Notes: a model not told the origin generated them from the sequence alone. 64,000 nt of DNA from Gemmatimonadota bacterium (GCA_039586795.1 JBDHJS010000012.1:1-64000), one strand, 5' to 3'; shown: positions 22,444 through 56,662, counted from the stretch's first letter. Made by a program: numbers and translations.

Positions 22444-22536
22444 CCCAGGGCGGAAGGAAATAATACCCCACTCCCCCCTTCTTCGAAGCTGGCCTTCCGC
22501 CCTGGTCCCCACCTCTTCGGTAGGTGGGCTTTTTTT
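22444..22536 (+). ncRNA. Candidate ~95-nt structured small RNA or attenuated leader upstream of dnaE2
   Basis: Begins at the predicted +1; perfect 13-bp stem ccagggcggaagg/ccttccgccctgg with a C-rich loop; then a cccacct-cUUCGg-t-aggtggg hairpin and T7. Confidence 0.55.
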
Positions 22537-22571
22537 GTCGCCAGGACTTACGGGTTTTGTTCGGGTACGCC

Positions 22572-25500
22572 ATGTCCTCTTACGCCGAGCTTCACTGCCA
22601 CTCCGCTTTCTCTCTGCTTGATGGGGCCTCGACACCGGAAGTTCTGGTGCGGCAGGCGGTTGAACTGGGCATCGAGGCGCTGGCGCTCACCGATCACGAC
22701 GATCTGGGCGGGATCGTTCGGTTCAGCCAGGCGGCGCGTGGGTCGGGTCTGGAGGCGATCGTTGGGGTCGAACTGACGATGGCGCCGGCGGAGGCTGGGG
22801 CCCCGGCCAGCCATCTCACGCTGCTGGCGCGTACGGCGGAAGGCTACGCCAACCTATCGGAGTTGGTGACCCGGTCTCGCATGCTGCGGCCGCGGGGCCG
22901 GCCGCGGATCAGCTGGGAGGAACTGGGCGAGCGAGGCAAAGGGCTGCTGGCGTTGACGGGCTGCCCGCAGGGCGAGCTGGCACGGCGGGTGAGGGCGGGG
23001 GACGGGAAGGGCGCCCGTGAACTGCTCGAGTTCCTGCGCAGCGCCTGCGACGGGTATGTGGCGGTGGAGGTGTGGGATCATGCGTTGCCGGAGGAGCGTA
23101 AGCTAGCGGAGCGGTTGTTGGAGCTGGCGGACCGGCGCGGTCTGATGGCGGTGGCGACGAACGATGTGCACTACGCGCTGCCATCGGGCCGGATCGTGCA
23201 CGATGTGCTCACCTGTCTGCGTCATCAGACGACGCTGGATGAGGCAGGCACCCGTCTTCGCCCCAACGGCGAGTGGTACCTGAAGCCGCCGTCGGTGGTG
23301 TGGCGGCGCTGGCGACATCGCCCCGATGTCGTCGAGAACACCCTCGCTCTGGCAGCGGAGTGCCCGTTCCGGCTCGCCGATCTATCGCCGGCGATGCCGG
23401 GGTTCAAAGTGCCTCCCGAGATGACGAGGCAGGAATTCCTCGAGCGTCTGGTTTGGCGCGGCGCCAAGGAGCGGTACGCCGGCGTGGGTCAGAAGCGGAA
23501 CGGCGATCCGATCCGCGTCGCGGGGCCGGTAGAGGCGCACCGTCCACCGTCTACCGTCTACCGTCCACCATCTACCGGGCTGACCCAACGGGTGCGTCGT
23601 CAAATTCGGCACGAGCTCGCGGTGATCGCCCGGCTCGACCTGGCCGGGTACTTCCTGACGGTCTGGGATGTCGTGCGGTTCGCGCGGCGGCGCGGGATCC
23701 TGTTGCAGGGGCGCGGCTCGGCGGCGAACTCGTGTGTCTGCTATTGCCTGGGGATCACGGCGGTGGATCCTATCAAGTTCGAGTTGCTGTTCGAGCGCTT
23801 TCTGTCGGAAGAGCGCGGCGGCGCGCCCGACATCGATGTCGATATCGAGCACGAGCGACGCGAGGAGGTGCTCCAGTACGTCTACAGCAAGTACGGTCGC
23901 GACCGGTCGGCGATGGTGTGCGAGACGATCACCTACCGTGGCAAATCCGCCGTGCGCGATGCGGCGCGCGTCCTCGGCTTCTCGGTGGATGTGGCCGATC
24001 ATTTGTCGGGCGAAGCGGATCGCCGGGAGGCGGCGGACGCCGCCGACGGGTTGGAGAACGGAGGGTTGGCCGCCTGCGGACTCGACATGTCGGACAAGCG
24101 CGTCCGCGCACTAATCCACGTGGTCCGCGGGATGGATCAGCTGCCGCGTCATCGTTCGATCCATGTGGGTGGCTTCGTGCTCAGTCAGGATGCGCTGGCC
24201 CGCTCCGCACCTATCGAGCCGGCGTCGATGCCGGACCGCACGGTGATCCAGTGGGACAAGGACGACCTCGATTTCGTCGGCTTGATCAAGATCGACTTGC
24301 TCGGGTTGGGCATGCTAACCTGTTTGGCGAAGACGATCCGCTACATACGGGAAGCGCGCGGCATCTCTATCGACCTGGCGCAACTGCCGGCCAGCGATCC
24401 CGAGGTCTACGGGATGATCCAGGCGGCGGACACGGTGGGTCTGTTTCAAATCGAGAGCCGGGCGCAGATGAACTCGCTGCCACGACTCAAGCCGCAGAAT
24501 TTCTACGACCTGGTGGTGCAGGTGGCGCTCATCCGGCCGGGCCCTATCCAGGGTGACATGGTGCACCCGTACGTGCGGCGCCGGCGCGGCGAAGAGCCGG
24601 TGACCTACCTGCACCCGGACCTGAAGCCGATCCTCAAGCGGACGTTAGGCGTACCTCTCTTTCAAGAGCAGGGGATGAAGGTGGCGGTGGCGCTAGCCGG
24701 CTTCACGCCGGGACAAGCCGACGCGCTGCGCCGGGCCATGGGGTTCAAGCGCTCGAGGGAGGCGATGGCGTTGATCGAGCCGGCGTTGCGCGAGGGGATG
24801 ACGAAGCGCGGCATAGCACCCGAGGTGCAGGACCAGCTCGTCAAGCAGCTCACCGCCTTCGCCAACTACGGTTTCCCCGAGAGCCACTCGGCCTCGTTCG
24901 CGCTGCTGGTCTACGCGTCCGCATATCTGAAGCGCTACTACGCGCCCGAGTTTTTCGCCGGACTCCTCAACTCACAACCCATGGGCTTCTACGCCCCTGG
25001 CACCCTGGTCCACGATGCGCGCCGCCACGGTGTCGAAGTGCGCCCCGTCGACCTCGCGCTTTCCAGCTGGGACTGCACCCTCGAGCCAAGAAACATCGAC
25101 TGCCCGGCGCCCGCGATGAGAGTCGGTTTGCGCTACGTGCGTGGCCTCGCCTCGAAAGCCGAAGAACAGCTGAAGACGGCCTGGGAGACCGGTGGACCAT
25201 TCGAATCGGTGGAAGATGTGGTACGGCGTTCAGGGCTCGGGTTACCGGCGCTCAAGACGCTGGCTGAGGCCGGCGCCTTCGACACGCTGTGGGGTAAGGG
25301 TCGCCGCTCCGCGTTGTGGGAAGTGCTGGGCCGATACGCCCAGGAGCCGTTGGCGCCGGTGGAATCGATGCGGCGGCCGAAGCTCAAGGAGATGGAGCGG
25401 ATCGAGATCGTCGCCGCCGACTACATGACGACCGGACTCTGTACGCACGGGCATCCCATGGAATATCTGCGCGGTGTGTTGCGCGAGCGAGGAATACTAT

Positions 25501-25814
25501 CGGCAGAAGAATTGCCGCAGGCGAAGAACCGATCGTTGGTGAAGGTGGCGGGCGTGGTGATCTGTCGGCAACGGCCGGGCACCGCCAAGGGCGTCTGCTT
25601 CATCACGCTGGAAGACGAGACCGGCTTTTCCAACTTCATCGTCTACGCCGACCTGTTCCAGCGCTACCGCCGCACCATCGTGCGGTCACCCGTCTTGCTC
25701 ATCGAGGGGATGGTACAGAACGAGCAAGACGTGGTGAACGTGCAGGCATGTCACATCGAAGCGATCGTCCCGCAAGCCGGCGCCGATGTCATCGAAAGTC
25801 ACGACTTCCACTGA
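22572..25814 (+). CDS. dnaE2: Error-prone DNA polymerase III alpha (DnaE2/ImuC)
   Basis: YAELHCHSAFSLLDGAS PHP start; GRGSAANS; PDIDVD; QWDKDD; KIDLLGLGML; FANYGFPESHSASFALLVYAS; LLNSQPMGFY; C-terminal SHDFH typical of DnaE2. Confidence 0.95.
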   Translation: MSSYAELHCHSAFSLLDGASTPEVLVRQAVELGIEALALTDHDDLGGIVRFSQAARGSGLEAIVGVELTMAPAEAGAPASHLTLLARTAEGYANLSELVTRSRMLRPRGRPRISWEELGERGKGLLALTGCPQGELARRVRAGDGKGARELLEFLRSACDGYVAVEVWDHALPEERKLAERLLELADRRGLMAVATNDVHYALPSGRIVHDVLTCLRHQTTLDEAGTRLRPNGEWYLKPPSVVWRRWRHRPDVVENTLALAAECPFRLADLSPAMPGFKVPPEMTRQEFLERLVWRGAKERYAGVGQKRNGDPIRVAGPVEAHRPPSTVYRPPSTGLTQRVRRQIRHELAVIARLDLAGYFLTVWDVVRFARRRGILLQGRGSAANSCVCYCLGITAVDPIKFELLFERFLSEERGGAPDIDVDIEHERREEVLQYVYSKYGRDRSAMVCETITYRGKSAVRDAARVLGFSVDVADHLSGEADRREAADAADGLENGGLAACGLDMSDKRVRALIHVVRGMDQLPRHRSIHVGGFVLSQDALARSAPIEPASMPDRTVIQWDKDDLDFVGLIKIDLLGLGMLTCLAKTIRYIREARGISIDLAQLPASDPEVYGMIQAADTVGLFQIESRAQMNSLPRLKPQNFYDLVVQVALIRPGPIQGDMVHPYVRRRRGEEPVTYLHPDLKPILKRTLGVPLFQEQGMKVAVALAGFTPGQADALRRAMGFKRSREAMALIEPALREGMTKRGIAPEVQDQLVKQLTAFANYGFPESHSASFALLVYASAYLKRYYAPEFFAGLLNSQPMGFYAPGTLVHDARRHGVEVRPVDLALSSWDCTLEPRNIDCPAPAMRVGLRYVRGLASKAEEQLKTAWETGGPFESVEDVVRRSGLGLPALKTLAEAGAFDTLWGKGRRSALWEVLGRYAQEPLAPVESMRRPKLKEMERIEIVAADYMTTGLCTHGHPMEYLRGVLRERGILSAEELPQAKNRSLVKVAGVVICRQRPGTAKGVCFITLEDETGFSNFIVYADLFQRYRRTIVRSPVLLIEGMVQNEQDVVNVQACHIEAIVPQAGADVIESHDFH
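23539..23580 (+). repeat. Heptamer tandem (ACCGTCY-like, ~6 units) inside dnaE2
   Basis: accgtcc accgtct accgtct accgtcc accatct accgggc, encoding HRPPSTVYRPPSTG. Confidence 0.8.
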
Positions 25815-26137: not shown

Positions 26138-26899
26138 ATGTGGAAACCACCTTCATTCCAGGGGAGCAAGGTCCCACAACAGGTTCCCCGTCTCGTAATC
26201 GCCATCGCTGCTGCCGTGATCGCCCTTGTCGTGGCCAGGTCCATTTTGGTGCCGGACACGTTCGGCGAACTCGGGCATTATCGGGCGGCGGCGATTGACG
26301 CGGTCGTAGCGCGCGAGAAGTCGTTTGCAGGTCAGCAGGAGTGCGCGATGTGCCACTTCCCCATCATGCAGGCGCGGTTGGAGGGGAACCACCGAGGTGT
26401 GTCGTGCGAGTCATGCCACGGTCCGGCGGCGGCTCATGTCGCGAACCCTGCGGAGACGAAGCCGACGATCCCGGATGTGCGCGAATTCTGTCCGCGCTGT
26501 CACTCGTACAACATGTCACGGCCCACGGGTTTTGCTCAGATCGATCCGGTGGCTCACAATCCCCGCGTGCCGTGCATGCAATGTCATGATCCGCACGCGC
26601 CGGTGCCGCCGGTTACGCCCGAAGAGTGCAGCGCCTGCCACGGTCAGATCGCATCACAGAAAGCGGTCTCGCATCACGCCGGCCTCGAATGCACGACGTG
26701 CCACGTGGCGACCGATGAGCACAAGATGTTACCTCACAGAGTGCGGCCCAGCAAACCGGAGGACCGCAGCTTCTGTGGCGGCTGCCACGCAGAGGATTCT
26801 TCGAGCCCAGGCTATATACCGCGGATCAACTTGAGGATGCATAACCCCCGCTATCTCTGCTGGCAGTGCCATTATCCGCATTTCCCGGAGACTTCATGA
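26138..26899 (+). CDS. Membrane-anchored octahaem cytochrome c
   Basis: N-terminal TM; 8 CxxCH motifs (CAMCH, CESCH, CPRCH, CMQCH, CSACH, CTTCH, CGGCH, CWQCH). Confidence 0.9.
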   Translation: MWKPPSFQGSKVPQQVPRLVIAIAAAVIALVVARSILVPDTFGELGHYRAAAIDAVVAREKSFAGQQECAMCHFPIMQARLEGNHRGVSCESCHGPAAAHVANPAETKPTIPDVREFCPRCHSYNMSRPTGFAQIDPVAHNPRVPCMQCHDPHAPVPPVTPEECSACHGQIASQKAVSHHAGLECTTCHVATDEHKMLPHRVRPSKPEDRSFCGGCHAEDSSSPGYIPRINLRMHNPRYLCWQCHYPHFPETS

Positions 26900-27693
26900 T
26901 GCCAGAAGAAACGCGCAATTCAGCCTGCAGCCCCAAACCAGAGCCGGACCCGGATCGTCGAGAGTTTCTGAGGAAGTGCGGCCTGGCAGCTCCGGTTCTG
27001 TTAGGCGTGATAGGCGTGCCGCTGATAGCCGCTCAGGACTCGGAGTCTGACGACTACGATGCAACCGAGCACCTGTATGGCATGGGGGTCGACATCTCGA
27101 AGTGCATCGGCTGTAGCCAATGCGTCGCCGCCTGCAAGATCGAAAATGATGTTCCGAGCGAACCGCATTTCTTCAACACCTGGGTCGAGCGTTACATCAT
27201 CGAAATGGACGGCGAGGTCCAGGTGGACAGCCCGAACGGGGGCATGGATGGATTCCCGCCCACGGAGAATGGCGATGTCCGGCGGACGTTCTTCGTTCCA
27301 AAGCTGTGCAACCAGTGCGACGAGCCACCTTGCGTTCAAGTCTGTCCTGTGGGGGCGACATTCAAAACGCAGGACGGCGTCATCCTCGTCGACGATGATT
27401 ACTGCATCGGGTGTCGATACTGCGTGCAAGCGTGTCCGTACGGCGCCCGGTGGGTCCACCCAGAGAAGCATGTGGCGGCGAAATGCACGTTTTGCTACCA
27501 CCGTCTTGTTGAGGGATTGGTACCCGCCTGCGTCGAAGTCTGTCCGACGGGTGCGCGGATCTTTGGCGAGGTCGAGAAACGCGCCACCCCGCTAGCGCGC
27601 TTCATGCGCTTCAACGACATACAGGTCTTAAAGCCGCAGATGAATACGAAGCCGAAGGTCTATTACGCTAATCTCGACGGCGAGGTGAGGTAG
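26896..27693 (+). CDS. Tat-exported 4x[4Fe-4S] ferredoxin subunit (NrfC/TtrB/DsrO family)
   Basis: RREFL twin-arginine; CIGCSQCVAAC; CNQCDEPPCVQVCP; CIGCRYCVQACP; KCTFC..R; PACVEVCP. ATGA overlap. Confidence 0.92.
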   Translation: MMPEETRNSACSPKPEPDPDRREFLRKCGLAAPVLLGVIGVPLIAAQDSESDDYDATEHLYGMGVDISKCIGCSQCVAACKIENDVPSEPHFFNTWVERYIIEMDGEVQVDSPNGGMDGFPPTENGDVRRTFFVPKLCNQCDEPPCVQVCPVGATFKTQDGVILVDDDYCIGCRYCVQACPYGARWVHPEKHVAAKCTFCYHRLVEGLVPACVEVCPTGARIFGEVEKRATPLARFMRFNDIQVLKPQMNTKPKVYYANLDGEVR

Positions 27694-27695
27694 CC

Positions 27696-28916
27696 ATGCA
27701 GGGTTACATCTACCCCAATGAGTTCGAGCTCCATTGGAGCCTCCTCGTCGTGGTCTATCCGTACATAACGGGGCTGGTAGCCGGCGCCTTCATCCTGGCG
27801 TCGCTGGAGCGGGTCTTTAATGTCAAAGAAGTGCAGCCGACTTATCGCTTGGCCTTGCTGACGGCGCTCGCGTTTCTGCTCATCGCACCGCTTCCACTGT
27901 GGATCCATCTGGGCCACCCACTGCGATCGTACGAGATCTTCTTGACGCCGAACAAGCAATCGGCGATGGCGATGTTCGGGTTTGTGTACGCCTGGTACCT
28001 GATGGTCGTGTTGCTGCTCGAGATCTGGTTCGACTATCGGAAAGATCTGGTACTCTGGTATCGGAACGAAAAGGGATGGCGACGCTGGGTGCACTACGCG
28101 TTGACACTGGGCGCTACCGATCTTTCGGCGCGGGCCCTGAAGTTCGATGACAAGGCCGGGCGTTGGATCACGATCATTGGTATCCCGTCGGCGTTCCTGC
28201 TTCACGGCTATGTCGGGTTCATCTTCGGATCGATCAAGGCGAATCCATGGTGGAGCAGCGTCTTGATGCCCGTCGTGTTCCTGTTTTCGGCCATCGTTTC
28301 GGGCATCGCGCTGGTACTCGTCATCTACATGATCTCCTGCATGTTCCGTTGGAAGCCTGTGGATATGAAGGCCGTGAACAAGCTGGCGGCATTCCTGTTC
28401 TACGCGATGGTCGTCGACGTCTCGCTCGAGGCGCTCGACTTCATCCACAGACTTTACGAATCAGAAGAGTCGATCGAAATCCTGACTCGGCTGGTCGAGA
28501 GCCGGCTCTTCATAAGTCTGATCGTGCTTCAGCTAGTGATCGGGACCTTGATCCCGTTGATCACGTTAGGCCTGACAGCACCGGCACTGAGCAAGGAGCC
28601 AGTGCTCAAGGTGCCCGATGAACTCAAGCGCCTGCTATTCCTCGTCTGCGGAGTACTGGTACAGATCGGCATCTTTTCCATACGCTGGAATGTTGTGATC
28701 GGCGGTCAGCTGTTTTCCAAGAGCCTCCGCGGCCTGACCGTCTACAAGGCTGAGCTTTTGGGGATCGAAGGCCTGCTGATGGCAATGGCGATGTTGATAC
28801 TGCCTTTGATTGTCCTATGGGTACTGGTCAAGATTCTGCCTCCCTGGCCGGAAGCGGAAGCAGTGCTACCGGATGATGGCGGTGAGCATCCACATACCGC
28901 GGAGGTTAGTGGCTAA
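27696..28916 (+). CDS. NrfD/PsrC-family quinone-interacting membrane subunit
   Basis: WSLLVVVYPYITGLVAGAF; HLGHPLR; LHGYVGFIF; W.S.LMPVVFLFSAIVSG; RWNVVIGGQ. Confidence 0.92.
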   Translation: MQGYIYPNEFELHWSLLVVVYPYITGLVAGAFILASLERVFNVKEVQPTYRLALLTALAFLLIAPLPLWIHLGHPLRSYEIFLTPNKQSAMAMFGFVYAWYLMVVLLLEIWFDYRKDLVLWYRNEKGWRRWVHYALTLGATDLSARALKFDDKAGRWITIIGIPSAFLLHGYVGFIFGSIKANPWWSSVLMPVVFLFSAIVSGIALVLVIYMISCMFRWKPVDMKAVNKLAAFLFYAMVVDVSLEALDFIHRLYESEESIEILTRLVESRLFISLIVLQLVIGTLIPLITLGLTAPALSKEPVLKVPDELKRLLFLVCGVLVQIGIFSIRWNVVIGGQLFSKSLRGLTVYKAELLGIEGLLMAMAMLILPLIVLWVLVKILPPWPEAEAVLPDDGGEHPHTAEVSG

Positions 28917-28925
28917 CGCAACAGC

Positions 28926-29000
28926 CGCCTGCTTGACACGACTACTGCCCCCTGGGCATCGGCCCAGGGGGCAGTAGTCGTCTTGGCAAGCAGGCGTTTT
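28926..29000. terminator. Long hairpin between the convergent respiratory operons
   Basis: 20-bp perfect stem acgactactgccccctgggc/gcccagggggcagtagtcgt, plus an outer 10-bp stem cgcctgcttg/caagcaggcg, followed by tttt. Confidence 0.8.
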
Positions 29001-29001
29001 C

Positions 29002-30108
29002 CTAAACCGTGGGATCCGCTGTATACCCTAGATATGTCAGCACTATGATGTAGATGATCACGGCGATGACCATCCAGGTGAACCATCGGCTTCGCTCGCC
29101 ACGATCGGCGCGGCGGTCGATGAACGGTACGACGAACAGGGCGAGCCCGAGCAAACCGAAGGCAAGGATGCCGACAACCTCACCTTCGAACCACAGGATG
29201 TGAGCCGGCAGGTACTTCAGCGTCTGGAACATGAACATGAAGTACCATTCTGGCTTGATGCCGGCAGGCGCTGGGGCGAAGGGATCCGCTTTTTCACCGA
29301 GTTCTGCCGGGAAGTAGGCCGCAAGAGCGGCGAGTATCGCCAACGCGGTGAGCCAGCCGACCAGGTCCCGAAGCAGGAAGTTCGGGAAGAAAGGCATCTT
29401 CTCTTTCGATCCGCCCTCCTGCTCCACATCGAGTGGTTCGCTCATTCCCTGCTTCTGCACTAGGAACAGGTGGAGAAACAGTAGGAAAGTGACCATCATC
29501 GGCAAGACCGCCACGTGAATAGCGTAGAACCGCGTCAAAGTAGCGCCTGAGACGTCGCTGCCTCCGCGGAGCACCGTGGCGAGGAACGCGCCGGCGACTG
29601 GAACCGCCTCCATGATCTGTGTTCCAACGCGCGTCGCGAAATAGGCGAGCTCGTTCCAGGGCAACAAGTATCCGGTGAATCCAAAGGCCATCGAGATGCC
29701 GAGCAGCAGGACTCCCGACATCCAGGTCACCTCCCGCGGCCGGCGGTAGGCTTTCAGCAGCATAACGCTGAACAGGTGAAGGAACGCCGTGAAGATCATC
29801 AGGTTGGCCGACCAGTGATGGATCGAACGGATTAGCCAACCGAATTCTACCTCCGCCATTAGGAATTGAATGGACTCGTACGCGTCCTCGGCGCTCGGGC
29901 GGTAGTAGAAGAGCAAGAGAATCCCGGTCGCAACCTGTACGCAGAAGAGAAACAGGGTCATGCCGCCGAGATAATACCAGATCGTGTGCTTGTGGACAGG
30001 GACGTCCTTTTTCTTCGCCATCTGTCCGGCAACACTCAGGCTCAACCTGTCGTCGAGCCAGCGGTATAGGCTATCGAAATGTTCTCGGAGTTTCCCCATA
30101 TCAGGCAT
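29002..30108 (-). CDS. Cytochrome b of a Rieske/cytochrome b complex (canonical, fused b6 + subunit IV type)
   Basis: Four haem-b His (RSIHHW, FLHLF, AIHVA, FLHLF); GYLLPW; PFFP; PEWY Qo motif present. Confidence 0.93.
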
Positions 30109-30559
30109 CCCTGCTCACGACGATTTCGTCGGCGCGCTCGTTCACCACGAACACCTCGAGCGGCCCCGGCGGCGGACCCTGAACGACTCGGCCGTTCAGA
30201 TCGAAGTGACCGTTGTGACATGCGCACCAGACGCGGCTGAGATCATCTCGGTATTGAACGATGCACCCAAGGTGCGGGCAGGCGGCGGAAAAGGCGCGCA
30301 ACTCGCCGGATGGCGTGCGGACGAGAATGCCCGGCTGGCTGCCGAACCTGAAGATCTGCCCCGAATTCGGCGGGACGTCTTCGGGTCTTATGGAGAGCGT
30401 GACCGTTGCCGATGCTGACTCTCCCGCAGCAGGCGGAATAAGGTACCGTGTCACTGGATAGAGGACGGACAGCACGAGACCACCCAGACTGGTTCCGAGT
30501 AGCCAATTAATGAAGCCACGCCGGCTGTGCTGCCGCGTCGGTTGATTCCTTGAAGCCAT
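30101..30559 (-). CDS. Rieske [2Fe-2S] subunit (canonical)
   Basis: SRRGF Tat motif plus TM; CPHLGC and CACHNG boxes; GPPP. Confidence 0.93.
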
Positions 30560-30562
30560 CGC

Positions 30563-31876
30563 TTACTCTCCCCCTCTCACACTCTGACCGGCGTCCAGCC
30601 GGGGCGTACTCTCCAACTGTTTGATCTTGAGCACCAGCCCTACGATAAGCAGCAGTATGACGCCTACCGATACGGCCAGTCCCATGCGGCGGAATTGCAG
30701 TTCCTCCAGCGCTCGCTGGCCCTGGGCATGAGCCTGAGATGTGGTCTCCAGCCCGGCCTCGACCTCTTCGGAAACCATATCGAGCGAAAAGCTGTGCACG
30801 GCCGTGCGTGCGCTAATCAGAGCGGTGCGCGCGTCGCCCAAGGCGAACAGAGCCTCGCTAACCTCCATGCCGGCGTTCTCTGCTCTGTCGAGTATCGAGT
30901 CGGCCGTCTCGAATGCCGTCACCAAGGAATCGATTTGGCTGCGCATCAGGGAGGCAACGGCGCCACCGGCGCTCGTCTCTGAGTGACACATTCGACAGGC
31001 AGCGCCCTCGGTGAGTCCCAAGAGTTCGTCGCCCGCCGGTTCGATGTCATGGTTCTCATGGCACGTCGCACAGCCAGGCCGCCCCATCATCGCGAAGATC
31101 GGCGAGTGAAAGCTTTCGGCAAACAGCTCGCTCATCACCGTGTGGCACTGTCCACACACGTTACCAACCCAGGAGATTCCAGGCGGCGCTGCTCCATGGT
31201 TGCCGTGACAGTCGTTGCACGTCGGTGCCGACAGGTCGCCTACTTCGGAAAGCATGCGCCAGTGGTAGCTCAGCTCGTACTTCTCACGCTGATCTGTCGG
31301 GATGCCGTAGGGCTCCATGTAGTCCGCATCCGAATGACACGAACCGCACGTTCCTGCGACATTCAACGGGTGTACGCTCGAGCTCGGATCGCCCGGAGGT
31401 TTTATCGAGTGTGCCGGATGGCAGCTTATGCAGGTGGCGACTTTTTGATCGCCGAACTGCGCGAGGCGGGTGCCGTGCACGGATGTTCGGTATTCAGCAA
31501 CCTGGTCGACGCGCAGCGAGGGATTGAACTGCCTCATGAACTGTGCATCGGAGTGGCAGCGACCACACACCAGTTCGACCTCATGAGGCTCCGGCACGCC
31601 GACATACCCACGCGCCGGGTCCATCGACGCCATGCTCATCATCGAGCCGTCGCCTCCGTGGCACGCCACGCAGCCGAAACTGGCGTCTGCATGAACGTCG
31701 TCCGCCAGCAGCTCCACCGGGTTGGAAAGCCTCTCGTCTCCGAGGGCGGCATGGCAAGTGATGCAGCTTTCTTCCTCCTGCTGCGCGAGTCCGGGCGAGG
31801 GCTGCGCGAGGAATGCAGCCATCAGAATCGCTGCAGAAACGAAGAGTCGAGTTGTTCTTATCACTGGTTCGATCAC
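30563..31876 (-). CDS. Nonahaem cytochrome c with a C-terminal membrane anchor
   Basis: Signal peptide; 9 CxxCH; helical stalk; C-terminal TM. Confidence 0.9.
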   Translation of the reverse strand: MIEPVIRTTRLFVSAAILMAAFLAQPSPGLAQQEEESCITCHAALGDERLSNPVELLADDVHADASFGCVACHGGDGSMMSMASMDPARGYVGVPEPHEVELVCGRCHSDAQFMRQFNPSLRVDQVAEYRTSVHGTRLAQFGDQKVATCISCHPAHSIKPPGDPSSSVHPLNVAGTCGSCHSDADYMEPYGIPTDQREKYELSYHWRMLSEVGDLSAPTCNDCHGNHGAAPPGISWVGNVCGQCHTVMSELFAESFHSPIFAMMGRPGCATCHENHDIEPAGDELLGLTEGAACRMCHSETSAGGAVASLMRSQIDSLVTAFETADSILDRAENAGMEVSEALFALGDARTALISARTAVHSFSLDMVSEEVEAGLETTSQAHAQGQRALEELQFRRMGLAVSVGVILLLIVGLVLKIKQLESTPRLDAGQSVRGGE

Positions 31877-33075
31877 CTCATCTGAAGGAAAGCCATTATG
31901 TCAGCGATCTCTTGGTCGCTCAGTCTCGGCCAGGACATAGCCTGGGTCATGACCTCGGTCTCCATCGGAAGCGAGTGGTTCCACAGCGACGCCAATACAG
32001 CCGCCGGCGAGTCGTGACCCACCACCTCTTCCAGATCGCTCGCTGTCGCACCGCCTCTACCCGCAAGCGAGTGACATGCTAGACATCCTTTGGTAGAGAG
32101 GAGACTGCGTCCGTCTTCGGCATCGCCCGCGTCCGCGAAGTATTGCACCGAGTAGAGATAGGCAACGATATCAGCCATCTCGCCGGACCCGAGACGCGGA
32201 ATCTCGATTCTCCTCGCGCTCATCACTTCAGCCATCGCTGGCGCCTTGTTCCACATCGCTGTGGCAAAATCGGTCAGGCCTTGGTATAGCCCCTTCGCGG
32301 CGAGGTCAGGTCCGACGTTTCCGCCAAATCCGGCGACGCTGTGACATTCGACGCAGCTCTTCTCGGTGAAGACGACTTCTCCCTCATCAGGATCGCCCGG
32401 TAGCACGTAGAGCGGACCCTGTAAGGGTTCAGGCGCAACAGATTCGAGATACGAGACGAGGTCGAGCAACTCGCTGCCCTGAAAGGTCGGACGGACGATA
32501 CCTCTCGACGCCATTAACTCCGACATAGCCGGTCCGTGATTCCATAGGGCCGCAGCAACGAGGATCGGAGAGCCGTATTGACTGAGATGATCGAGGCTTG
32601 GTCCAATCACACCGCCGTAGAGCCCGATCTGGTGACAGACCACGCATTGCTTCTCGGTGAAGAGCCTCTTGCCGGCCTCGACGTCGCCAGGCGGATCGAA
32701 GTAGTCTAGAGTGAAGAGGAACGCTGTGAGATCAGCAGCTTCACGGGGTGACATCGGTGACCGCTCGATTCCGTACTCCGTCATTCGTTGAGTCATGCCG
32801 GGAACATGGTTCCACATCGTGGCGGCCAATTCGTAGAACGATCCTGCTTGTGAGATGCCTCCCAGATCGGGCCCGACCGTGCCTCCCAATCCGTTGATCG
32901 AGTGACATTTCACGCATCCCTTCTCGCCGAAAACCCGCGAGCCAGCCAACGGGTTCTCCGCCATGTGCATATGTTCTTGGCCCAGTAATGTTCCGGGTAT
33001 TCCGCCAAGCATCGAAGCGACTGCCAACAGAAATAGTCGGCTACGGCATACGGACTGGAAACGATTACAGAACAT
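31873..33075 (-). CDS. Tetrahaem cytochrome c built from four class-I-like domains
   Basis: CVKCH, CVVCH, CVECH and CLACH, the first three followed by GPxL and all four by a WNHxPxM-like distal Met motif. Confidence 0.88.
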   Translation of the reverse strand: MFCNRFQSVCRSRLFLLAVASMLGGIPGTLLGQEHMHMAENPLAGSRVFGEKGCVKCHSINGLGGTVGPDLGGISQAGSFYELAATMWNHVPGMTQRMTEYGIERSPMSPREAADLTAFLFTLDYFDPPGDVEAGKRLFTEKQCVVCHQIGLYGGVIGPSLDHLSQYGSPILVAAALWNHGPAMSELMASRGIVRPTFQGSELLDLVSYLESVAPEPLQGPLYVLPGDPDEGEVVFTEKSCVECHSVAGFGGNVGPDLAAKGLYQGLTDFATAMWNKAPAMAEVMSARRIEIPRLGSGEMADIVAYLYSVQYFADAGDAEDGRSLLSTKGCLACHSLAGRGGATASDLEEVVGHDSPAAVLASLWNHSLPMETEVMTQAMSWPRLSDQEIADIMAFLQMR

Positions 33076-33156
33076 GATCTCCCTCTACCGTATTAGCTTC
33101 GAGTGCATAGGCGCATGCGGGGCCAAACTGATATTGTCTCCAGAAGGCGGCCCCTG

Positions 33157-35184
33157 TCAGTTCCCACCTAACGACGGAATGTCTCTATGGCAGAGCGCGC
33201 AGTCCGCTGGAGCGTTGTGTTCCACCATATCCGCATGGCATACCGTGCAGACCTGTCGCGACCATTCGGTGATCCACTCAGCCCGGTCCTGGTGACACAT
33301 GGTGCAACCGTTGTGCGCGATCGGCATGTGCTTTTCCTTGACGCCGCCGCGGTGGCAGGCGAGACAGTTGTTGTCCGGTTGATGATGTAGCGTGTGGCAT
33401 CCCTGGCACGGTAGCTCACCAGCGCCCATGCCTGGCGATTCGTGACAGAGAGCGCAGGCCAGGCCAGCATCGCGATGCAGCTGATGCGGGAAGTCGCCAA
33501 GATCGGTTGCCACAGGACGCGTTGGGGCGCCGCCGGGCCCGTCGTGACAGTCCGAGCAGTTGTCCGGCTGGGCCGCAGCATGGTGACACGTATTGCACGT
33601 GGCTCGCCCGGTGACGAACGTTTCGCCGTGATCTTCCAACGACGAGTGACAGGAAGAGCAGGGAAGCCCTGCGCGCTGTGTATGGTAGCTGTGGTTGAAC
33701 CGGGTCCCGGCAAAGGAAATGGACTGCGTACCGATCTCCACGTGGCACTGCAAGCATACGTTCCGCGATATGGGCGGGCCTAGCTGCAGGTCGGGTACCG
33801 AGTAGGGGAGGGGGCCTTCCTCCACAGCCTCCTCCACCAGGCCGACGGAGGCGCGCAGCAGCTCATCTGCGTAAGCGACGTTATGAGCGCCCTTGCCTCG
33901 CTCTACGAAGTCGATGTTCTCTTCCGCCAGCGTCAACAGGCTATCGACGGTCGCGCGGGTACGAACGGGTACGGCTCCCGTCGTGCTTCGCGCGCCGCTC
34001 ACCAGCGATGCGACTTGCTGGAGTTTTCGGTCGAGCTCACGTTGCCAGGCGGGCAAGATGTTGGCGTAGCGGATGCCATGGCATGACATGCAAGTCGCTT
34101 CGCCGGCGAGCTTTACCTCTTCATGACCCGGGACTTCTCCGGGCAATCCGTGGCAGCTCTGGCAGGAAACGCGGGCGAGGAACATGGAGCTGGGCATATC
34201 GTCGCTTCCGTGTCCGCCCATGCCGGCGTACATCTGCCTTTGTTCCTCATGTACGCGCTGATGACACGAGGCACAATCGAGTTCGAACGTCTCGGCAAGC
34301 GAGACCACGCGGTGCAATATGGGCTGGTGGCACTGGGTGCACTCTACGTTGTGCTCCGCGATGTGGATTCGATGCACTAAGGTCGTGTTCTCGAACTCCG
34401 CAATCCGCTCCGGCTCGTTATGGCAGTTGAAGCAGCGGCGCTGGCCGGCCTCTCCGGTGCCGCCGGTTACGTCCTCATGGCAACTGACGCAGGACACCAT
34501 CTCTTCAACATACGTCGGATGATCGACGACGAAGCCAGCCGGCGAGCGGAAGCGAGGCGGTGAATGGTGGCAGCCGGTGCAACCGGCGAGCGGCTCGCCT
34601 GCCGGGCGATCTTTGAAGTGACACAGGTAACACGTCACAGCCGTCACCCGAAGGTGAGCGGCGCCAATCTCGACGCCCTGGTAATCAACACCCTCGTTAC
34701 CCTGCACTATTTGTGAGTGACAACTGGTGCACCGAAGTCTCTTGCCGCGACGCAGCTCACCCAGGTGCTGCGTATGATCGAAGCCGATGCCTTGATAGTT
34801 AACCTGACCTTCCAGCGCGCGCTCCGTATGACAACCCGAACGCAGGCAAGCCGCGTCTTCGATTTCAGCCCACGGTTTCGTTCCGTAGGCGCCGGTAACG
34901 TATTTCACGACCTGGTTGGCGGCCTGCAGCTTGCCCATCGCCTCCGCTTTGATCCCGGGCGCGTAGTGACAGCTGATACACTTCACGTTGTTGTGCGACG
35001 AAGTGGCCCACGAATCATAGTAGGGCTGCATGAGGTGACAGTTGGTGCAGAAACTGGGCTGCGCACTGTACTCGATGAACCCTACAGTCGCCACGGCCAT
35101 CAGGATGACCCCGAGGATGGCGACCTGGATGCCGATCTTGATCGGCCGCGAAAATCGATTTAGAAAGCTTCCCACTAGCGTCAT
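33157..35184 (-). CDS. Large multihaem cytochrome c (21 CxxCH + 1 CX4CH) with a NapC/NirT-like N-terminus
   Basis: N-terminal TM, then FCTNCHLMQPYYDSWATSSH..V.CISCH; CLRSGCH; 22 haem motifs counted. Start moved to MTLVGS after GGAGG. Confidence 0.9.
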   Translation of the reverse strand: MTLVGSFLNRFSRPIKIGIQVAILGVILMAVATVGFIEYSAQPSFCTNCHLMQPYYDSWATSSHNNVKCISCHYAPGIKAEAMGKLQAANQVVKYVTGAYGTKPWAEIEDAACLRSGCHTERALEGQVNYQGIGFDHTQHLGELRRGKRLRCTSCHSQIVQGNEGVDYQGVEIGAAHLRVTAVTCYLCHFKDRPAGEPLAGCTGCHHSPPRFRSPAGFVVDHPTYVEEMVSCVSCHEDVTGGTGEAGQRRCFNCHNEPERIAEFENTTLVHRIHIAEHNVECTQCHQPILHRVVSLAETFELDCASCHQRVHEEQRQMYAGMGGHGSDDMPSSMFLARVSCQSCHGLPGEVPGHEEVKLAGEATCMSCHGIRYANILPAWQRELDRKLQQVASLVSGARSTTGAVPVRTRATVDSLLTLAEENIDFVERGKGAHNVAYADELLRASVGLVEEAVEEGPLPYSVPDLQLGPPISRNVCLQCHVEIGTQSISFAGTRFNHSYHTQRAGLPCSSCHSSLEDHGETFVTGRATCNTCHHAAAQPDNCSDCHDGPGGAPTRPVATDLGDFPHQLHRDAGLACALCHESPGMGAGELPCQGCHTLHHQPDNNCLACHRGGVKEKHMPIAHNGCTMCHQDRAEWITEWSRQVCTVCHADMVEHNAPADCALCHRDIPSLGGN

Positions 35185-35192
35185 GCCGGTTC

Positions 35193-36449
35193 CTACCTCC
35201 TCCTCTCGATCCCGCGCAGCTTGAACCAGGCCAGGGTGATGGCCGAAAGTGCCAGAAACCAAACGGGGACTAGCAGGAGTTTGTGCTCCCACTGATGCTC
35301 GGCCGCGACCTCAGCGGTAGCGCGAATGTCAGCCGATACCGAGGCGACTTGCCGTGTAAGATCTTCCAGTACCTCCAAGTCGAGGCTGTGCTGAGTCTGA
35401 GAGACCTGCAGATACGCTGATTGAGCCGAGTGGAGGCGAAGGCTCACATCATCTACGCGGTGGCCCGCTCCTCGAAGCTCAGAGATAGCCTCTTCCGCGC
35501 TGTGAAGTTCCTCAATCGCGCGTATCACTTGTTGTTGGATCTCTATGCCACCCAGTGCAGCCGGGCTGTCGGCATCGTGACAGACGGTGCACGTCGATGC
35601 GATTCTGTCCGGCGGTATGCGTTCGGTTCCGTGGTTAGAGTGGCATGCTGTGCAGCCTGGCAGCAAGCCGTTCCTGGCGGCGACTCCGTGAGGGCCAGCG
35701 TCGAGAGCCCGTCGTACTAGCACGTGGCAGTGCCCGCAAACATCGGTTATCTGATTTACGTTGGGCGGAAGAGCCGCGTGGGAGCCGTGGCATCCCGTGC
35801 AGGTCGGCGCTGCGAAGTTCAGCTTATCGTAGAGGGCCACGCCGTGGGCACTGCTACGGTGCGTTGAAATCTGGTCGATCCCCAGCCCGTATTCGCCCAT
35901 TAACGCAGCATCTTCATGACAATCGGAGCAAGTGTGCACGATATTCGTCGGGTAGACGTTGCTGCGCGCGTCGTTAGCCGGGAGAATCGTGTGCGCATCG
36001 TGGCAGTCGGTGCAGGTCGGTGCGTTGTTGTCTCCTTGATTGAGGAGCAGCATCCCATGTCGGCTCGTCCTGAACTCAGCTAGTTGATCCGCTGGCAACC
36101 CGTACTGCCTCATTTGATCAGGATCGGAGTGGCACTCCGAACACAGTTCAACCGTTCCCATCTTACCGGGGCTCCCAACGAAATCAGAACCGGTATGCGC
36201 AGTTGCCGTCTCTAAACCGCGGGGGTTTCCACCATGACAATCGTGACAGCGGATACCACGCTCCGAGTGAACGCCGAGCTGGAACGCCCTGCGTTTTTCC
36301 GTGTGACAGACGACGCAGCTGTACTCGGGGTCCACCGTCACGCCTTGCTGTAGTGGGGCGATCGAAAGATCCGACTGAGCGGCAGCGTCAGGCGCAACGC
36401 TGTAGCCCAGCAATAGCCCGACGGCCAGAATCCATCTGCGAGATCTCAC
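35193..36449 (-). CDS. Nonahaem cytochrome c with a C-terminal anchor (paralogue of 30563..31876)
   Basis: Signal peptide; 9 CxxCH with similar spacing; shared CHSD..MRQ and APTC motifs; C-terminal TM. Confidence 0.9.
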   Translation of the reverse strand: MRSRRWILAVGLLLGYSVAPDAAAQSDLSIAPLQQGVTVDPEYSCVVCHTEKRRAFQLGVHSERGIRCHDCHGGNPRGLETATAHTGSDFVGSPGKMGTVELCSECHSDPDQMRQYGLPADQLAEFRTSRHGMLLLNQGDNNAPTCTDCHDAHTILPANDARSNVYPTNIVHTCSDCHEDAALMGEYGLGIDQISTHRSSAHGVALYDKLNFAAPTCTGCHGSHAALPPNVNQITDVCGHCHVLVRRALDAGPHGVAARNGLLPGCTACHSNHGTERIPPDRIASTCTVCHDADSPAALGGIEIQQQVIRAIEELHSAEEAISELRGAGHRVDDVSLRLHSAQSAYLQVSQTQHSLDLEVLEDLTRQVASVSADIRATAEVAAEHQWEHKLLLVPVWFLALSAITLAWFKLRGIERRR

Positions 36450-37705
36450 TATTGGCCCTCCCCTCCGCTGGCGCCCTCGTCAGCTTCGATGGGTTCCGTT
36501 TCCGCCGACTCCTCCGGAGGGTTGAAGCGCTCGACCGCCTCGTCGAGCCGGAGGTGGCTGCTTGGAGGCACCGACTCGAGTTGTCGCCCTGCGAACCACA
36601 ATACGAGGAAGCCACCAAAATAGAGGATTCCCAACGCCAGGACGATTGGGCGCCGCCGCAGTCGTCGTTCGGGCTCTCGGTCAAACAGTGGCAGAAGCAT
36701 CATAGCTACTGCCAGCAACACGTAGCCCGAGAATCCCCACACGCCAAGATATCGGATCAGAGCGAGCGATACGTCGATCACCACCCAGGTGGAGACGAGT
36801 CTTTCCGGTAACACGAAGGGGTCCGCGGGGTCGCCGATCGGCCGCGGAAAGAGCGCCGCCAGGCTGAATGCCAACGCCAACGTCAGAGTTCCAACAATGA
36901 AGGCACGCAGCAGGTGATTGGGGTAGAACGGTCTTCCAAGTCTGGCATCGGACTCTGCTCCAGGAGGTGGCGTGATCCCGTGCCTTCTCAGCAGCGAGAA
37001 GTGAAAGAGCAGTAGAGCGAGCGCTGCCCACGGCAAAATGATGACATGCCAGGCGAAGAAGCGGCTAAGCGTCGCTCCGGATACGATTTCGTCCCCACGC
37101 AACACGGATGCGATGATGCTTAGCAACGGGATTCGCGACATCGTCTCCAGGACTTCGGTCGTGGTCCAGTACGACCACTGATCCCAAGGCAGTAGATACC
37201 CAGTCGCGCCAAAGGCGACGATCGCCAACAGCAACAATAGGCCCGCGACCCAGTTGGTTTCGCGGGGTGGCTTGTAGGCGCCGCTGAAGAACACGCGGGC
37301 CATGTGCGCGAGGGCTGCAACGACAAGTAGGTTAGCGGACCACACATGCAGACCGCGGACCAGCCACCCCAGCGGGACTTCAGTGGTGATGTACTGGATG
37401 CTTGGGTATGCCTCCTGTACCGACGGTCGGTAGTAGAACGATAGGAGTACGCCGGTGACGATCAGCACGATGAACAGCAAGTACGTGATGCCTCCCAGCG
37501 CGTGACGCCATCCGACGTGGGCAGGCAACCGACGGCTGAGGGACGAGCGCAGCGCCTGGTCGATCGGTGCTTGCCGATCGATCGGCCCATAAAGAAGGCC
37601 GAAAAACCGGCCCACGCCGAGCAGTCCGGGGTCGGTGCTGGACTTGATGTCTGCCCAGATCTGCGCCCACCACCTAGAGCGTGGTTTCTTCTCTTGATCG
37701 TTCAC
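36449..37705 (-). CDS. Second cytochrome b, lacking the PEWY motif
   Basis: Four His ligands kept (RGLHVW, LAHMAR, AWHVI, LFHFS); GYLLPWDQ; PFYP; PADPF followed by STWV instead of PEWY. Confidence 0.9.
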   Translation of the reverse strand: MNDQEKKPRSRWWAQIWADIKSSTDPGLLGVGRFFGLLYGPIDRQAPIDQALRSSLSRRLPAHVGWRHALGGITYLLFIVLIVTGVLLSFYYRPSVQEAYPSIQYITTEVPLGWLVRGLHVWSANLLVVAALAHMARVFFSGAYKPPRETNWVAGLLLLLAIVAFGATGYLLPWDQWSYWTTTEVLETMSRIPLLSIIASVLRGDEIVSGATLSRFFAWHVIILPWAALALLLFHFSLLRRHGITPPPGAESDARLGRPFYPNHLLRAFIVGTLTLALAFSLAALFPRPIGDPADPFVLPERLVSTWVVIDVSLALIRYLGVWGFSGYVLLAVAMMLLPLFDREPERRLRRRPIVLALGILYFGGFLVLWFAGRQLESVPPSSHLRLDEAVERFNPPEESAETEPIEADEGASGGEGQ

Positions 37706-38154
37706 CCTGTTCCTTCCGAAACGTAGACGACACCATCTCTAATCGAGACCCTGTAACGTTTGAGAGCCTGAGTCGTCAGGCCGGCGACAACATCTCCGCG
37801 GAGGTCGTACACCATGTATCTGCAAGGTGAGAATACAGTAGACGAGTCCGGATCCCAACGGAGGAGGCAGCCATCGACGGGGGAGTCTCCCTGCACCGCA
37901 AAGTAGCTCAGGGAATCGAGTCGAACGATTAGCACGACTTCTTCACCCCAGTTGCGGACACGACTGGCGCCCACGGGAAAATCTGTCTCTCTGGCGACGC
38001 GCACGACGGGTTGAATCTCGGGGATGTTCAGATTCTCCGATGGGTTAACGTAGAAGACCGCGGCCATCGTCCCGAGCGTAAGCATCAGCAGTATCACGCC
38101 ACCCAGCAGAAGCTCGGTAAAGCCGAGTCCTGAACTCCAGCTGTCTTTGCTCAT
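37702..38154 (-). CDS. Rieske-fold protein without [2Fe-2S] ligands
   Basis: TM, then FPVGA; SPVDGC and FSPCRYMVYDLRGDVVAG..LKRYRV.IRDGVVYV align to the Rieske boxes, but the cluster Cys/His are replaced. Confidence 0.8.
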   Translation of the reverse strand: MSKDSWSSGLGFTELLLGGVILLMLTLGTMAAVFYVNPSENLNIPEIQPVVRVARETDFPVGASRVRNWGEEVVLIVRLDSLSYFAVQGDSPVDGCLLRWDPDSSTVFSPCRYMVYDLRGDVVAGLTTQALKRYRVSIRDGVVYVSEGTG

Positions 38155-40498: not shown

Positions 40499-40598
40499 CC
40501 GCCGACCGACACCTGCTGTTAGTTAGATCCTCCCAGTATGATCACCCCATGAGATTGACCATCCCGAACGACCGGTGCCCGCCGCGGCGTTGGCTATT

Positions 40599-41723
40599 AT
40601 GATGAGCGACATGAACCGACGCGACGGCCTGAAGGCCGAGGTGTTGAGCTACATGCGGCGTGGCATAGACGCACCGAAAGACGAAGACGGTTTCCTTCGG
40701 CTGGCGCTGGCGGTTTTCGAATACCAGTTCACGGAGAATGAGCCCTACCGTCGGTACTGCGAGCGGCGACGCGTGACGCCGGACAAAGTCACCGACTGGC
40801 GGCGAATCCCGGCCGTGCCGACCGCCGCATTCAAAGAAGCGGGCTTGATTTGCGGGGGGACTGACAAGGCCGAAATCGTCTTTCGGACCAGCGGCACCAG
40901 CCAGGGTCGAGAGCGGCGCGGCGCCCACTACGTCCGGGACCTCGAGTTATATGAGGCATCCGCGCTCCCAAACTTCGCCGCGCATCTGCTTCCCGATGGT
41001 GCGCATCTCCGCACGTTGGTGCTGGGCCCTAGCTCGAACCTGGCGCAGGATTCATCGCTGTCCTGGATGCTCGATTTGGTACGGTGCACCTATGGAACGG
41101 CGGGAAGCGCCCACTATGTGGATGAGGAAGGATTGCAGGTCGAACGGCTGTTAGGCGAGCTCGAGGGCTGTGAGAAGCAGGGTCGGCCGGTCATGCTGCT
41201 AGGCACGGCCGCGGCATTCGTTCACGTGCTAGACGCGCTGGAGGCACGCCAGCGAACGCTACGCCTTGCTCCGGGCACCCGCTTGATGGAGACTGGCGGC
41301 ACCAAGGGGATAGATCATGAGATGCGTCGAGATGAGCTTTACCGCGCGTTGACCAGCCGCCTTGGAGTCTCCGGTCTGTACTGCATCGCCGAGTATGGTA
41401 TGACGGAGATGTGCTCGCAGTTCTACGACAACGTTTTGCGCGAGCGGGCGCGAGCTCGACCGGTGTGGAAGCGCTACAAGACGATACCACCGTGGGTACG
41501 CACGCAAGTGGTCGACGCAGAGTCGCTCGAGCCGGTCGACGACGGAAACGTCGGACTTCTGCGCCATCTCGACCTCGCCAATTTCGATTCGGTGATGGCG
41601 ATCTTGACCGAAGATATTGGCGTTACAGGTAACGGTGGTTTCGAGATCCTCGGCCGAGCGGCCGGCGCTGAGTTGCGTGGCTGCTCGTTGGCAATGTCCC
41701 AATGGGTGAAGACGCAAGAATAG
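40599..41723 (+). CDS. LuxE-family acyl-protein synthetase
   Basis: IPAVPTAAFK; FRTSGTS; SSLSWM; METGGTKG; EYGMTEMCSQFY; DLAN; TEDIG; ILGRA.GAELRGCS. Start uncertain (40575, 40599 or 40611). Confidence 0.88.
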   Translation: MMSDMNRRDGLKAEVLSYMRRGIDAPKDEDGFLRLALAVFEYQFTENEPYRRYCERRRVTPDKVTDWRRIPAVPTAAFKEAGLICGGTDKAEIVFRTSGTSQGRERRGAHYVRDLELYEASALPNFAAHLLPDGAHLRTLVLGPSSNLAQDSSLSWMLDLVRCTYGTAGSAHYVDEEGLQVERLLGELEGCEKQGRPVMLLGTAAAFVHVLDALEARQRTLRLAPGTRLMETGGTKGIDHEMRRDELYRALTSRLGVSGLYCIAEYGMTEMCSQFYDNVLRERARARPVWKRYKTIPPWVRTQVVDAESLEPVDDGNVGLLRHLDLANFDSVMAILTEDIGVTGNGGFEILGRAAGAELRGCSLAMSQWVKTQE

Positions 41724-53319: not shown

Positions 53320-53365
53320 TCTTGTTATCTCGGTGCAGATGCAATTCCCAGCACGGCGGTCCGCT

Positions 53366-55006: not shown

Positions 55007-55209
55007 TTGCTGCGAATATAGCGAACGGCGTCAACGCTCGCACAGAGCCGGGGGAAGTCGAGGACATGCGGTCGCGCTTCGCTTTGCCACAGCGTAAGTT
55101 GTCAGGCACAATCACAACGTTGCAGACGTTCTCACCAGCAAGGCACAGCGGCCGACTCGTGAGACGATCCAGGTCTCACAGAGTCACAAAGTGACCAACC
55201 AGGTTAGGA

Positions 55210-56649: not shown

Positions 56650-56662
56650 TCTGGCCTATCGA

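Follow-up and report, generated by a model that had tools for sequence, protein, structure and literature searches.

In a 64,000-nucleotide stretch from a Gemmatimonadota bacterium (GCA_039586795.1, JBDHJS010000012.1:1-64000; hereafter the window), positions 29,002 to 38,154 hold a run of eight open reading frames (ORFs), all on the minus strand, which encode two Rieske/cytochrome b modules together with multihaem c-type cytochromes. The first module, M1, consists of a Rieske-like protein (Rieske*), a cytochrome b (b*), nonahaem A and a NapC-headed 22-haem cytochrome, the second, M2, of a tetrahaem cytochrome, nonahaem B, a Rieske protein and a cytochrome b. M2 is an ordinary menaquinol-type Rieske/cytochrome b complex with a nonahaem replacing cytochrome c1. 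In M1, the loss of the cluster ligands, of the twin-arginine (Tat) signal and of the PEWY motif is an old, shared specialisation under purifying selection, decay being rejected for the clade as a whole, and the module no longer runs a Q-cycle. The reading we favour, at about even probability, is that M1 is a stand-alone, Rieske-independent oxidoreductase between quinone and multihaem c-type cytochromes that feeds a porin–cytochrome-like conduit. The initial annotation of the sequence had instead joined all eight genes into one obligate b/b* heterodimer wired to about 44 c haems.

Rieske* (37702..38154) is transcribed first and has an N-terminal membrane anchor; its ORF is open from 38181, and the ATG at 38154 agrees with orthologues of about 150 residues. 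It is followed by b* (36449..37705), a long cytochrome b in which b6 and subunit IV are fused, by nonahaem A (35193..36449), with a long non-haem stalk and a C-terminal membrane helix in a cytochrome c1-like topology, and by the NapC/NrfH-headed cytochrome (33157..35184; ORF open from 35292). The M2 genes encode the tetrahaem cytochrome (31873..33075), made of four class I c domains, nonahaem B (30563..31876), an old paralogue of nonahaem A at 31% identity, the canonical Rieske protein (30101..30559) and the canonical long cytochrome b (29002..30108). The ends of neighbouring ORFs overlap or nearly abut, except for a gap of 81 bases between the NapC-like and tetrahaem genes. The gene order and haem number of the initial annotation are borne out: the nonahaems have nine CxxCH motifs each, the tetrahaem cytochrome four, and the NapC-like protein 21 together with one CX4CH (residues 149-155), giving 43 CxxCH and one CX4CH over the run. 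The canonical character of M2 stands as well. Its Rieske protein carries SRRGFI, the ligands C94-x-H96 and C112-x-x-H115 and the disulfide C99/C114, with Gly and Phe at the Ser/Tyr hydrogen-bond positions suggesting a low-potential type, and its cytochrome b carries YLGG, KPEWY, the four haem histidines and the Arg-Asp pair of the quinone-reducing (Qi) site.

Rieske* contains no histidine, and its sole cysteines are Cys105 and Cys120 (numbering of the 159-residue ORF). Aligned with intact Rieske proteins, it shows S100, V102, S118 and R121 at the positions of the [2Fe-2S] ligands C94, H96, C112 and H115, and keeps the disulfide pair. Despite the ligand loss it matches Pfam Rieske_2, and its predicted fold is a Rieske domain (predicted local distance difference test, pLDDT, 89), the top Foldseek match being a Chlorobaculum Rieske protein (E 2e-8). 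In b*, His120, His134, His220 and His235 are present and STWV is aligned with the PEWY of solved cytochromes b; the predicted fold is that of a long bc-type cytochrome b (pLDDT 90), with a template-modelling score of about 0.8 to bc1 cytochrome b.

Scanning one genome of each species yielded 81 relatives; 80 were kept, 78 of them from Gemmatimonadota, one from an uncultured bacterium and one on a 1.9-kb contig of a Lysobacter bin. Residues were counted over the sequences that passed length and identity filters, the window included (75 Rieske*, 74 b* and 25 M2 pairs). In all 75 Rieske*, the ligand cysteine positions hold Ser, Ala or Gly in the one case and Ser in the other, and both disulfide cysteines are retained; the Tat pattern is found in none of them, against 25 of 25 M2 Rieske proteins, and both ligand boxes occur in 0/82 database homologues. 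In a profile search of all proteins, the ligand-less SPxDGC type was confined to the top cluster and its fragments, and 114 of the best 150 matches have both ligand boxes. A few unrelated Rieske-fold proteins (among them P0101, P0210, P0228 and P0230) also miss some or all cluster ligands. The four haem histidines occur in 74/74 b*, where S[TS]W[VI] replaces PEWY and neither Pro nor Glu/Asp is found at its first two positions in any sequence. The Asp of the bc1-type Qi pair (Lys/Arg-Asp) is missing from all 74 b* and present in all 25 M2 cytochromes b, and the b6f-type CxGG site for haem cn is absent from b*, in which Ala, not Cys, precedes LGG. Arg240 sits at the Qi histidine position, as in b6, positions 68 and 264 being His or Gln; besides the histidines, this Arg240, Trp307 and Tyr/Thr170-LLPWDQ are invariant. 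On the periplasmic side, Thr181, Glu184 (70/74) and Asp311 (69/74) are newly conserved, and Thr occupies the small-residue position of the quinol-oxidising (Qo) site in 68/74. Over the M2 set, Tat, cluster ligands, PEWY, the four histidines and the Qi Arg-Asp pair are each found in 25/25. The losses listed for the first module in the initial annotation, and the histidines and disulfide said to remain, thus hold across 74-75 orthologues. Because the cluster ligands, Tat signal, PEWY and Qi Asp are lost, the Q-cycle as described is impossible in M1.

Selection was measured as the ratio of non-synonymous to synonymous substitution rates (dN/dS) by the Nei–Gojobori method on independent close pairs, pairs with dS outside 0.05-1.5 being dropped. 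The median is 0.11 for Rieske* (13 pairs, 0.05-0.15), 0.116 for b* (15 pairs, 0.06-0.17), 0.137 for nonahaem A (11 pairs) and 0.097 for the NapC-like protein (7 pairs); the medians of the canonical pair are 0.10 for the Rieske protein and 0.095 for cytochrome b (3 pairs each). The same loss pattern extends over several families at 47-76% identity. The b-haem ligands and every c-haem motif of M1 have been retained under this purifying selection. Because the losses are conserved in 74-75 orthologues and dN/dS is about 0.11, M1 represents specialisation and not decay, as the initial annotation had argued from the coordination of the losses. The absence of PEWY and that of the Rieske ligands go together under purifying selection (74/74 b*, 75/75 Rieske*), orthologues do not keep the ligands, and dN/dS, at 0.05-0.17 in all pairs, is nowhere near 1.

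The four M1 genes are adjacent and in the same order in all 59 loci, among the 80, in which all four ORFs were recognised; of the other 21 loci, most run off the end of a contig or locus, two have all four genes by tblastn but a shortened b*, and two stop short in scaffolds with N. M2 genes lie inside 28 of the 80 loci, downstream on the opposite strand in 12, upstream on the same strand in 7 and upstream on the opposite strand in 9; none of the 28 has M2 downstream on the strand of M1, as in the window. Within the family, the NapC-like gene was matched in 22 of 30 other genomes, and 3 of these were uninformative. In the remaining 19, it is followed by an octahaem–NrfC–NrfD module in 17 and by a convergent M2 cytochrome b in 2, never directly by the tetrahaem gene. 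The co-directional eight-gene run is therefore peculiar to this genome among those compared, and M1 and M2 are two separable modules, not one operon. Because relatives in the family have the octahaem–NrfC–NrfD genes, and never the tetrahaem gene, after the NapC-like gene, either about 26138-33075 has been inverted or the run is a misassembly. No repeat was found at the ends of the putative inversion, and scans for promoters and terminators gave about as many matches as expected by chance (3 against 4.1 and 11 against 8.7). Beside one end of the block lies a DNA polymerase III alpha-family gene (22524-25814), which we take to be DnaE2-like. As the gene order is unique to this genome, a single heterodimer wired to all 44 haems does not follow from it.

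Co-occurrence was assessed in 401 genomes of the phylum with completeness of at least 90%, M1 being called from a Rieske* orthologue with E below 1e-36 (next match 1e-13). M1 was found in 41 genomes and an M2-type cytochrome b in 46, both in 29, M1 only in 12 and M2 only in 17. In G186 (96% complete, 4 contigs) and G264 (93%), b* is the only cytochrome b by both family and protein searches, as it is at E 1e-20 in G428 and G435 (completeness not given); the rest of the 12 M1-only genomes hold unrelated cytochromes b of 28-41% identity. One of the 12, G291, has a split M2 cytochrome b, with two overlapping frames within the cd1 region (L121:13128-14203) beside an intact M1, due to either a frameshift or a sequencing error. 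No M2 lies near M1 in 36 of 52 loci, which partly overlap the 401 genomes, and 13 of these genomes have no M2 at all. In one quartet of loci, M1 unites L007, L009 and L010, whereas NrfD, cytochrome b and Rieske unite L007 with L024 and L009 with L010 (Shimodaira–Hasegawa-like approximate likelihood ratio test, SH-aLRT, 99 each). As the two blocks group differently, M2 appears to have been exchanged independently of M1 there, chimeric bins being possible. Obligate pairing of M1 and M2 is unlikely, and the obligate heterodimer of the initial annotation is not supported in view of the 12 of 41 M1 genomes without an intact M2 cytochrome b and the 17 of 46 M2 genomes without M1. Its further idea that b* serves as a quinone-reducing arm is weakened by the missing Qi Asp.

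We infer that M1 descends from an intact operon of its own and not from duplication of M2. In family f12, of another class, two of three sampled genomes (L114 and L115) carry an operon in M1 order, Rieske–cytochrome b–nonahaem–NapC-headed 20-haem, with Tat, all ligands and P[ED]WY. Its NapC-like protein is 36-37% identical to that of M1 over about 660 residues, its nonahaem matches nonahaem A at 229-282 bits and nonahaem B at 201-233, and its cytochrome b has an N-terminal extension and a short loop in common with b*. The direction of ligand loss is judged from this synteny and from the ligands being general in Rieske proteins; the deep branches of the cytochrome b tree are left open. A metagenome scan for the cytochrome b of the intact operon gave two short relevant contigs only. 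The cytochromes b of these relatives (L114:9437-10543, L115:9416-10520, P0234-P0242) have an odd Qo site, with Arg for the conserved Tyr (GRLLPW) and Lys or Arg at the small-residue position; P[ED]WY and a full Rieske protein are retained, and in most of them b and subunit IV are separate proteins. These relatives possibly represent an intermediate state. An assignment to Dibrova clade G' was dropped, other cytochromes b of this genome (L123, L124) appearing closer to that type by motif.

In alignment with NrfH (E 2e-9), the NapC head has both CxxCHxM (Met88) and the quinol-site Lys121, which corresponds to NrfH Lys82, in 65/65 sequences; the equivalent Lys of CymA is described as needed for quinol interaction (PMC2762525). 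The genome holds futalosine-pathway menaquinone genes and two matches to haem-copper oxidase subunit I. No solved relative of nonahaem A was found by sequence, and a CbcL-like protein of this genome has a haem domain homologous to it (99.7%). Modelled together as three chains, b*, Rieske* and nonahaem A reached a score of 0.72, against 0.01 for the best of 3 controls; the score mark, passed by 116/157 solved and 2/215 mismatched pairs, is roughly applicable to a case with its own alignments and three chains. Contacts agree among runs to at least 94%, and partner pLDDT is at least 84. In the model, the C-terminal helix of nonahaem A lies on b* residues 262-292, along helix E, and the interface takes in the tip of Rieske* that formerly held the cluster, the stalk of nonahaem A and its seventh haem motif. 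This dock resembles the seat of cytochrome c1 on cytochrome b. The model supports binding of the three proteins to each other.

M1 is located in respiratory islands with CbcL-like multihaem/FdnI-type proteins. An unannotated protein of about 500 residues is found in 41/41 M1 genomes and lies within 30 kb of M1 in 31 of them, compared with 29 genomes (21 within 30 kb) for M2 and 20/41 for NrfD; among the 12 genomes without an intact M2, it lies within 30 kb in 11. Multihaem cytochromes flank it in 24 of 29 loci. It belongs to no Pfam or NCBIfam family, its beta-barrel-like alternation has a z of 5.1 (MtrB 4.5; two controls 0.2 and 0.4), and its nearest named Atlas clusters are outer-membrane barrels (0.92-0.93). 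The window's own genome has this barrel candidate on another contig (C53; L130), flanked by two 9-haem lipoproteins on one side and a 9-haem cytochrome on the other. The set there (L130:9404-17179) also includes tetrahaem and small 4-haem cytochromes and adjoins a 19-haem/FdnI-type CbcL-like gene; judged from sequence, it is a candidate porin–cytochrome conduit of an unnamed family. In four loci (L062, L064, L067, L068), the genes downstream of M1 on its strand encode a CbcL-like pair, the barrel candidate, a multihaem cytochrome and a different, PEWY-bearing Rieske/cytochrome b of about 38% identity to M2.

If M1 is a stand-alone oxidoreductase, Rieske* may act as a cofactor-free clamp with its former cluster tip in the modelled b*–nonahaem A interface and, having no cofactor, would no longer need Tat export. 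Menaquinol chemistry at the periplasmic face would have moved to the NapC/NrfH-type head, which would trade electrons with the 31 haems of the chain and, through them, with a porin–cytochrome-like conduit in the outer membrane. Cytochrome b* would be a transmembrane two-haem wire with a remodelled quinone site on the cytoplasmic side, functioning as the b domain does in Geobacter CbcL but on a bc scaffold.

Several points weigh against this reading and the origin proposed for M1. The tree does not resolve a grouping of b* with the cytochrome b of the intact operon (support 45/17), and a grouping of b* with M2 is not rejected (approximately unbiased test, p-AU 0.198). The NapC head scores below the NrfH family cut-off (TIGR03153, 53.5 against 134.2) and has Gln (53 of 65) or Met (12) at the position of NrfH Asp89. 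In the three-chain model, no c-haem motif lies on b* among the 25 best-defined pairs, leaving the b-to-c path unexplained; the modelled dock also resembles that of cytochrome c1/f, and close cousins can pass the score. A link to MtrAB was rejected: an MtrB/PioB porin was found in 3 of the 41 M1 genomes, and none in the present genome (G000). The barrel candidate also occurs in 9/9 M2-only genomes and in 10/24 with neither module, a hand-picked set from the same class, and its assignment as a barrel is a lead that does not come from a fold. M1 breaks off within nonahaem A in L023 and L070, both on scaffolds with N. M1 and M2 co-occur in 29 of the 41 M1 genomes, against 4.7 expected by chance, kin not being independent; 23 of the 36 M1 genomes without a nearby M2 still hold an M2-type cytochrome b elsewhere, and in metagenome-assembled genomes 90-100% complete a missing gene is not proof of absence.

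This co-occurrence, with the modules within 30 kb of each other in 21 genomes, favours an arrangement in which b and b* form an asymmetric dimer wherever both are present, with the intact Rieske protein at the one live Qo site, Rieske* in the other, crossed-over position, and electrons passing from bL to bL* and on to a second arm. The b and b* trees are broadly alike over 21 loci, and the matched losses in Rieske* and at the Qo site suit the crossed-over dimer geometry. Intermonomer electron transfer is itself a reviewed topic (PMC7908018). Such a facultative heterodimer is nonetheless unlikely in view of the 12 M1 genomes without an intact M2 cytochrome b and the 17 M2 genomes without M1, the genomes in which b* is the sole cytochrome b, the conflicting groupings of M1 and the M2 block in the quartet, the missing Qi Asp, and an operon fusion unique to this genome. 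Asymmetric b/b* dimers have, to our knowledge, so far been made only by engineering. The shortened copies among the M1 loci, those broken off in L023 and L070 and the b* of L065 and L078, for which the match ends at residue 342-349, would suit a decaying duplicate; set against the low dN/dS in every pair and the losses shared between diverged families, this explanation is extremely improbable.

The retained features of b* bear on two further readings. That b* and Rieske* are catalytically dead, a scaffold or electron store anchoring the nonahaem and a NapC-headed cytochrome that does all the quinol chemistry, in parallel with the deranged bc1 of Acidocella, is quite unlikely given the four histidines of all 74 b*, in contrast to the bH ligands missing from the acidophile cytochrome b, the invariant Arg240, Trp307 and Tyr/Thr170-LLPWDQ, and the gain of conserved Glu184 and Asp311. 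The same two acids flank the old Qo region and could, in place of the PEWY Glu, form a remodelled periplasm-side quinol site whose first acceptor is NapC haem 1 instead of the Rieske cluster. Both forms of the operon, intact and ligand-less, include the NapC-headed gene, and mutation of the PEWY Glu is reported to have only a modest effect in bacterial bc1 (PMC7908018). The Thr at the small-residue Qo position should, however, narrow the pocket. Bulky residues at this position block the site. Moreover, the intact-ligand relatives already hold the NapC gene, which is thus not a replacement arrival. We regard such a remodelled site as quite improbable, and equally so the iron–sulfur-free bifurcating or looped proton-motive cycle to which it would lead. 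Taken more broadly, as an energy-conserving haem-only loop or bifurcation with a NapC-type haem for the Rieske centre, in a module that may also pair with M2 as a b/b* dimer, the alternative is conceivable yet doubtful.

Rieske/cytochrome b complexes with multihaem c acceptors are described for Geobacter (GSU2930-2937; PMC2825233), and M2, which shows every tested hallmark, is a new member among them; its motifs are similar to those given for Dibrova subfamily J, with its long YxGG/PEWY cytochrome b (PMC5600118). M1 resembles these complexes in both folds, the four haem histidines, gene order and an anchored, c1-like c subunit, and differs in having no cluster ligands, Tat, PEWY or Qi Asp and an added NapC-headed 22-haem subunit. 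The deranged bc1 of Acidocella/Acidiphilium, as described in PMC10715153, includes a Rieske protein in the state seen in M1, ligand-less with the disulfide cysteines kept; its cytochrome b has lost bH histidines and is read as non-functional, whereas M1 has all four histidines invariant and 31 c haems. Geobacter CbcL, reported as a di-haem b linked to nine c haems with no iron–sulfur centre (bioRxiv 2022.08.31.506072), is like M1 in joining a di-haem b to a nine-haem c with no iron–sulfur subunit, the homology of nonahaem A being to the CbcL-like protein of this genome. In CbcL a single polypeptide contains the FdnI-type b domain, whereas the genes of M1 are separate and encode a bc-type b, a Rieske-fold clamp and a NapC head; the FdnI-type b fused to a multihaem domain of CbcL, MtrH and MtoC is thus absent from M1. 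With NapC, NrfH and CymA, the M1 head shares the N-terminal helix, CxxCHxM and the quinol-site Lys, and differs at Asp89, in its third motif (CX4CH) and in its fusion to about 19 more haems.

PEWY-less cytochromes b are described in subfamilies H, K and M and in Ignavibacterium IALB_1666, with function given as unknown and no quinone motif listed; subfamily K, unlike b*, loses a haem histidine, the parts of supplement 3 consulted list no ligand-less Rieske partner, and the only Gemmatimonadetes entry there is GAU_0696, which has PEWY (PMC5600118). No description of the M1 module was found in the literature searched, subscription papers lying outside its scope, and in automatic annotation M1 appears as an ordinary bc complex. 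Bc-type catalysis is regarded as dependent on the Rieske cluster, and yet the M1 lineage discards the cluster together with PEWY and the Qi Asp and retains its two b haems under strong selection. This shows that the bc scaffold can be re-purposed and makes M1 a natural test of the roles left to cytochrome b and the Rieske head when there is no bifurcation. Together with the porin–cytochrome-like conduit, M1 would represent an unannotated electron-transfer route in about a tenth of the sampled Gemmatimonadota (41/401).

The octahaem c, NrfC-like 4Fe-4S and NrfD-like membrane proteins that form the third module of the window (26138..28916, plus strand) are encoded in 20/41 M1 genomes, and we take the module to resemble Geobacter Cbc4 by composition. 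Between its convergent NrfD end and that of the M2 cytochrome b lies a long hairpin (28926..28996) with a perfect 20-bp stem (28938-28981), probably terminator-like. The genome as a whole holds six cytochrome b homologues (loci L122-L125 among others); there are three further Rieske/cytochrome b clusters with 7-8-haem neighbours and a divergent cytochrome b (L125) that has no PEWY and no detected Rieske neighbour. At least three CxxCH occur in each of 39 frames, 319 motifs together. Elsewhere in the window, a LuxE-like gene stands beside a LuxC-like one (40575-43114), with no luciferase among the scanned ORFs, and a trypsin/PDZ protease gene lies amid three membrane-linked Ser/Thr-kinase-like genes (51646-58810).

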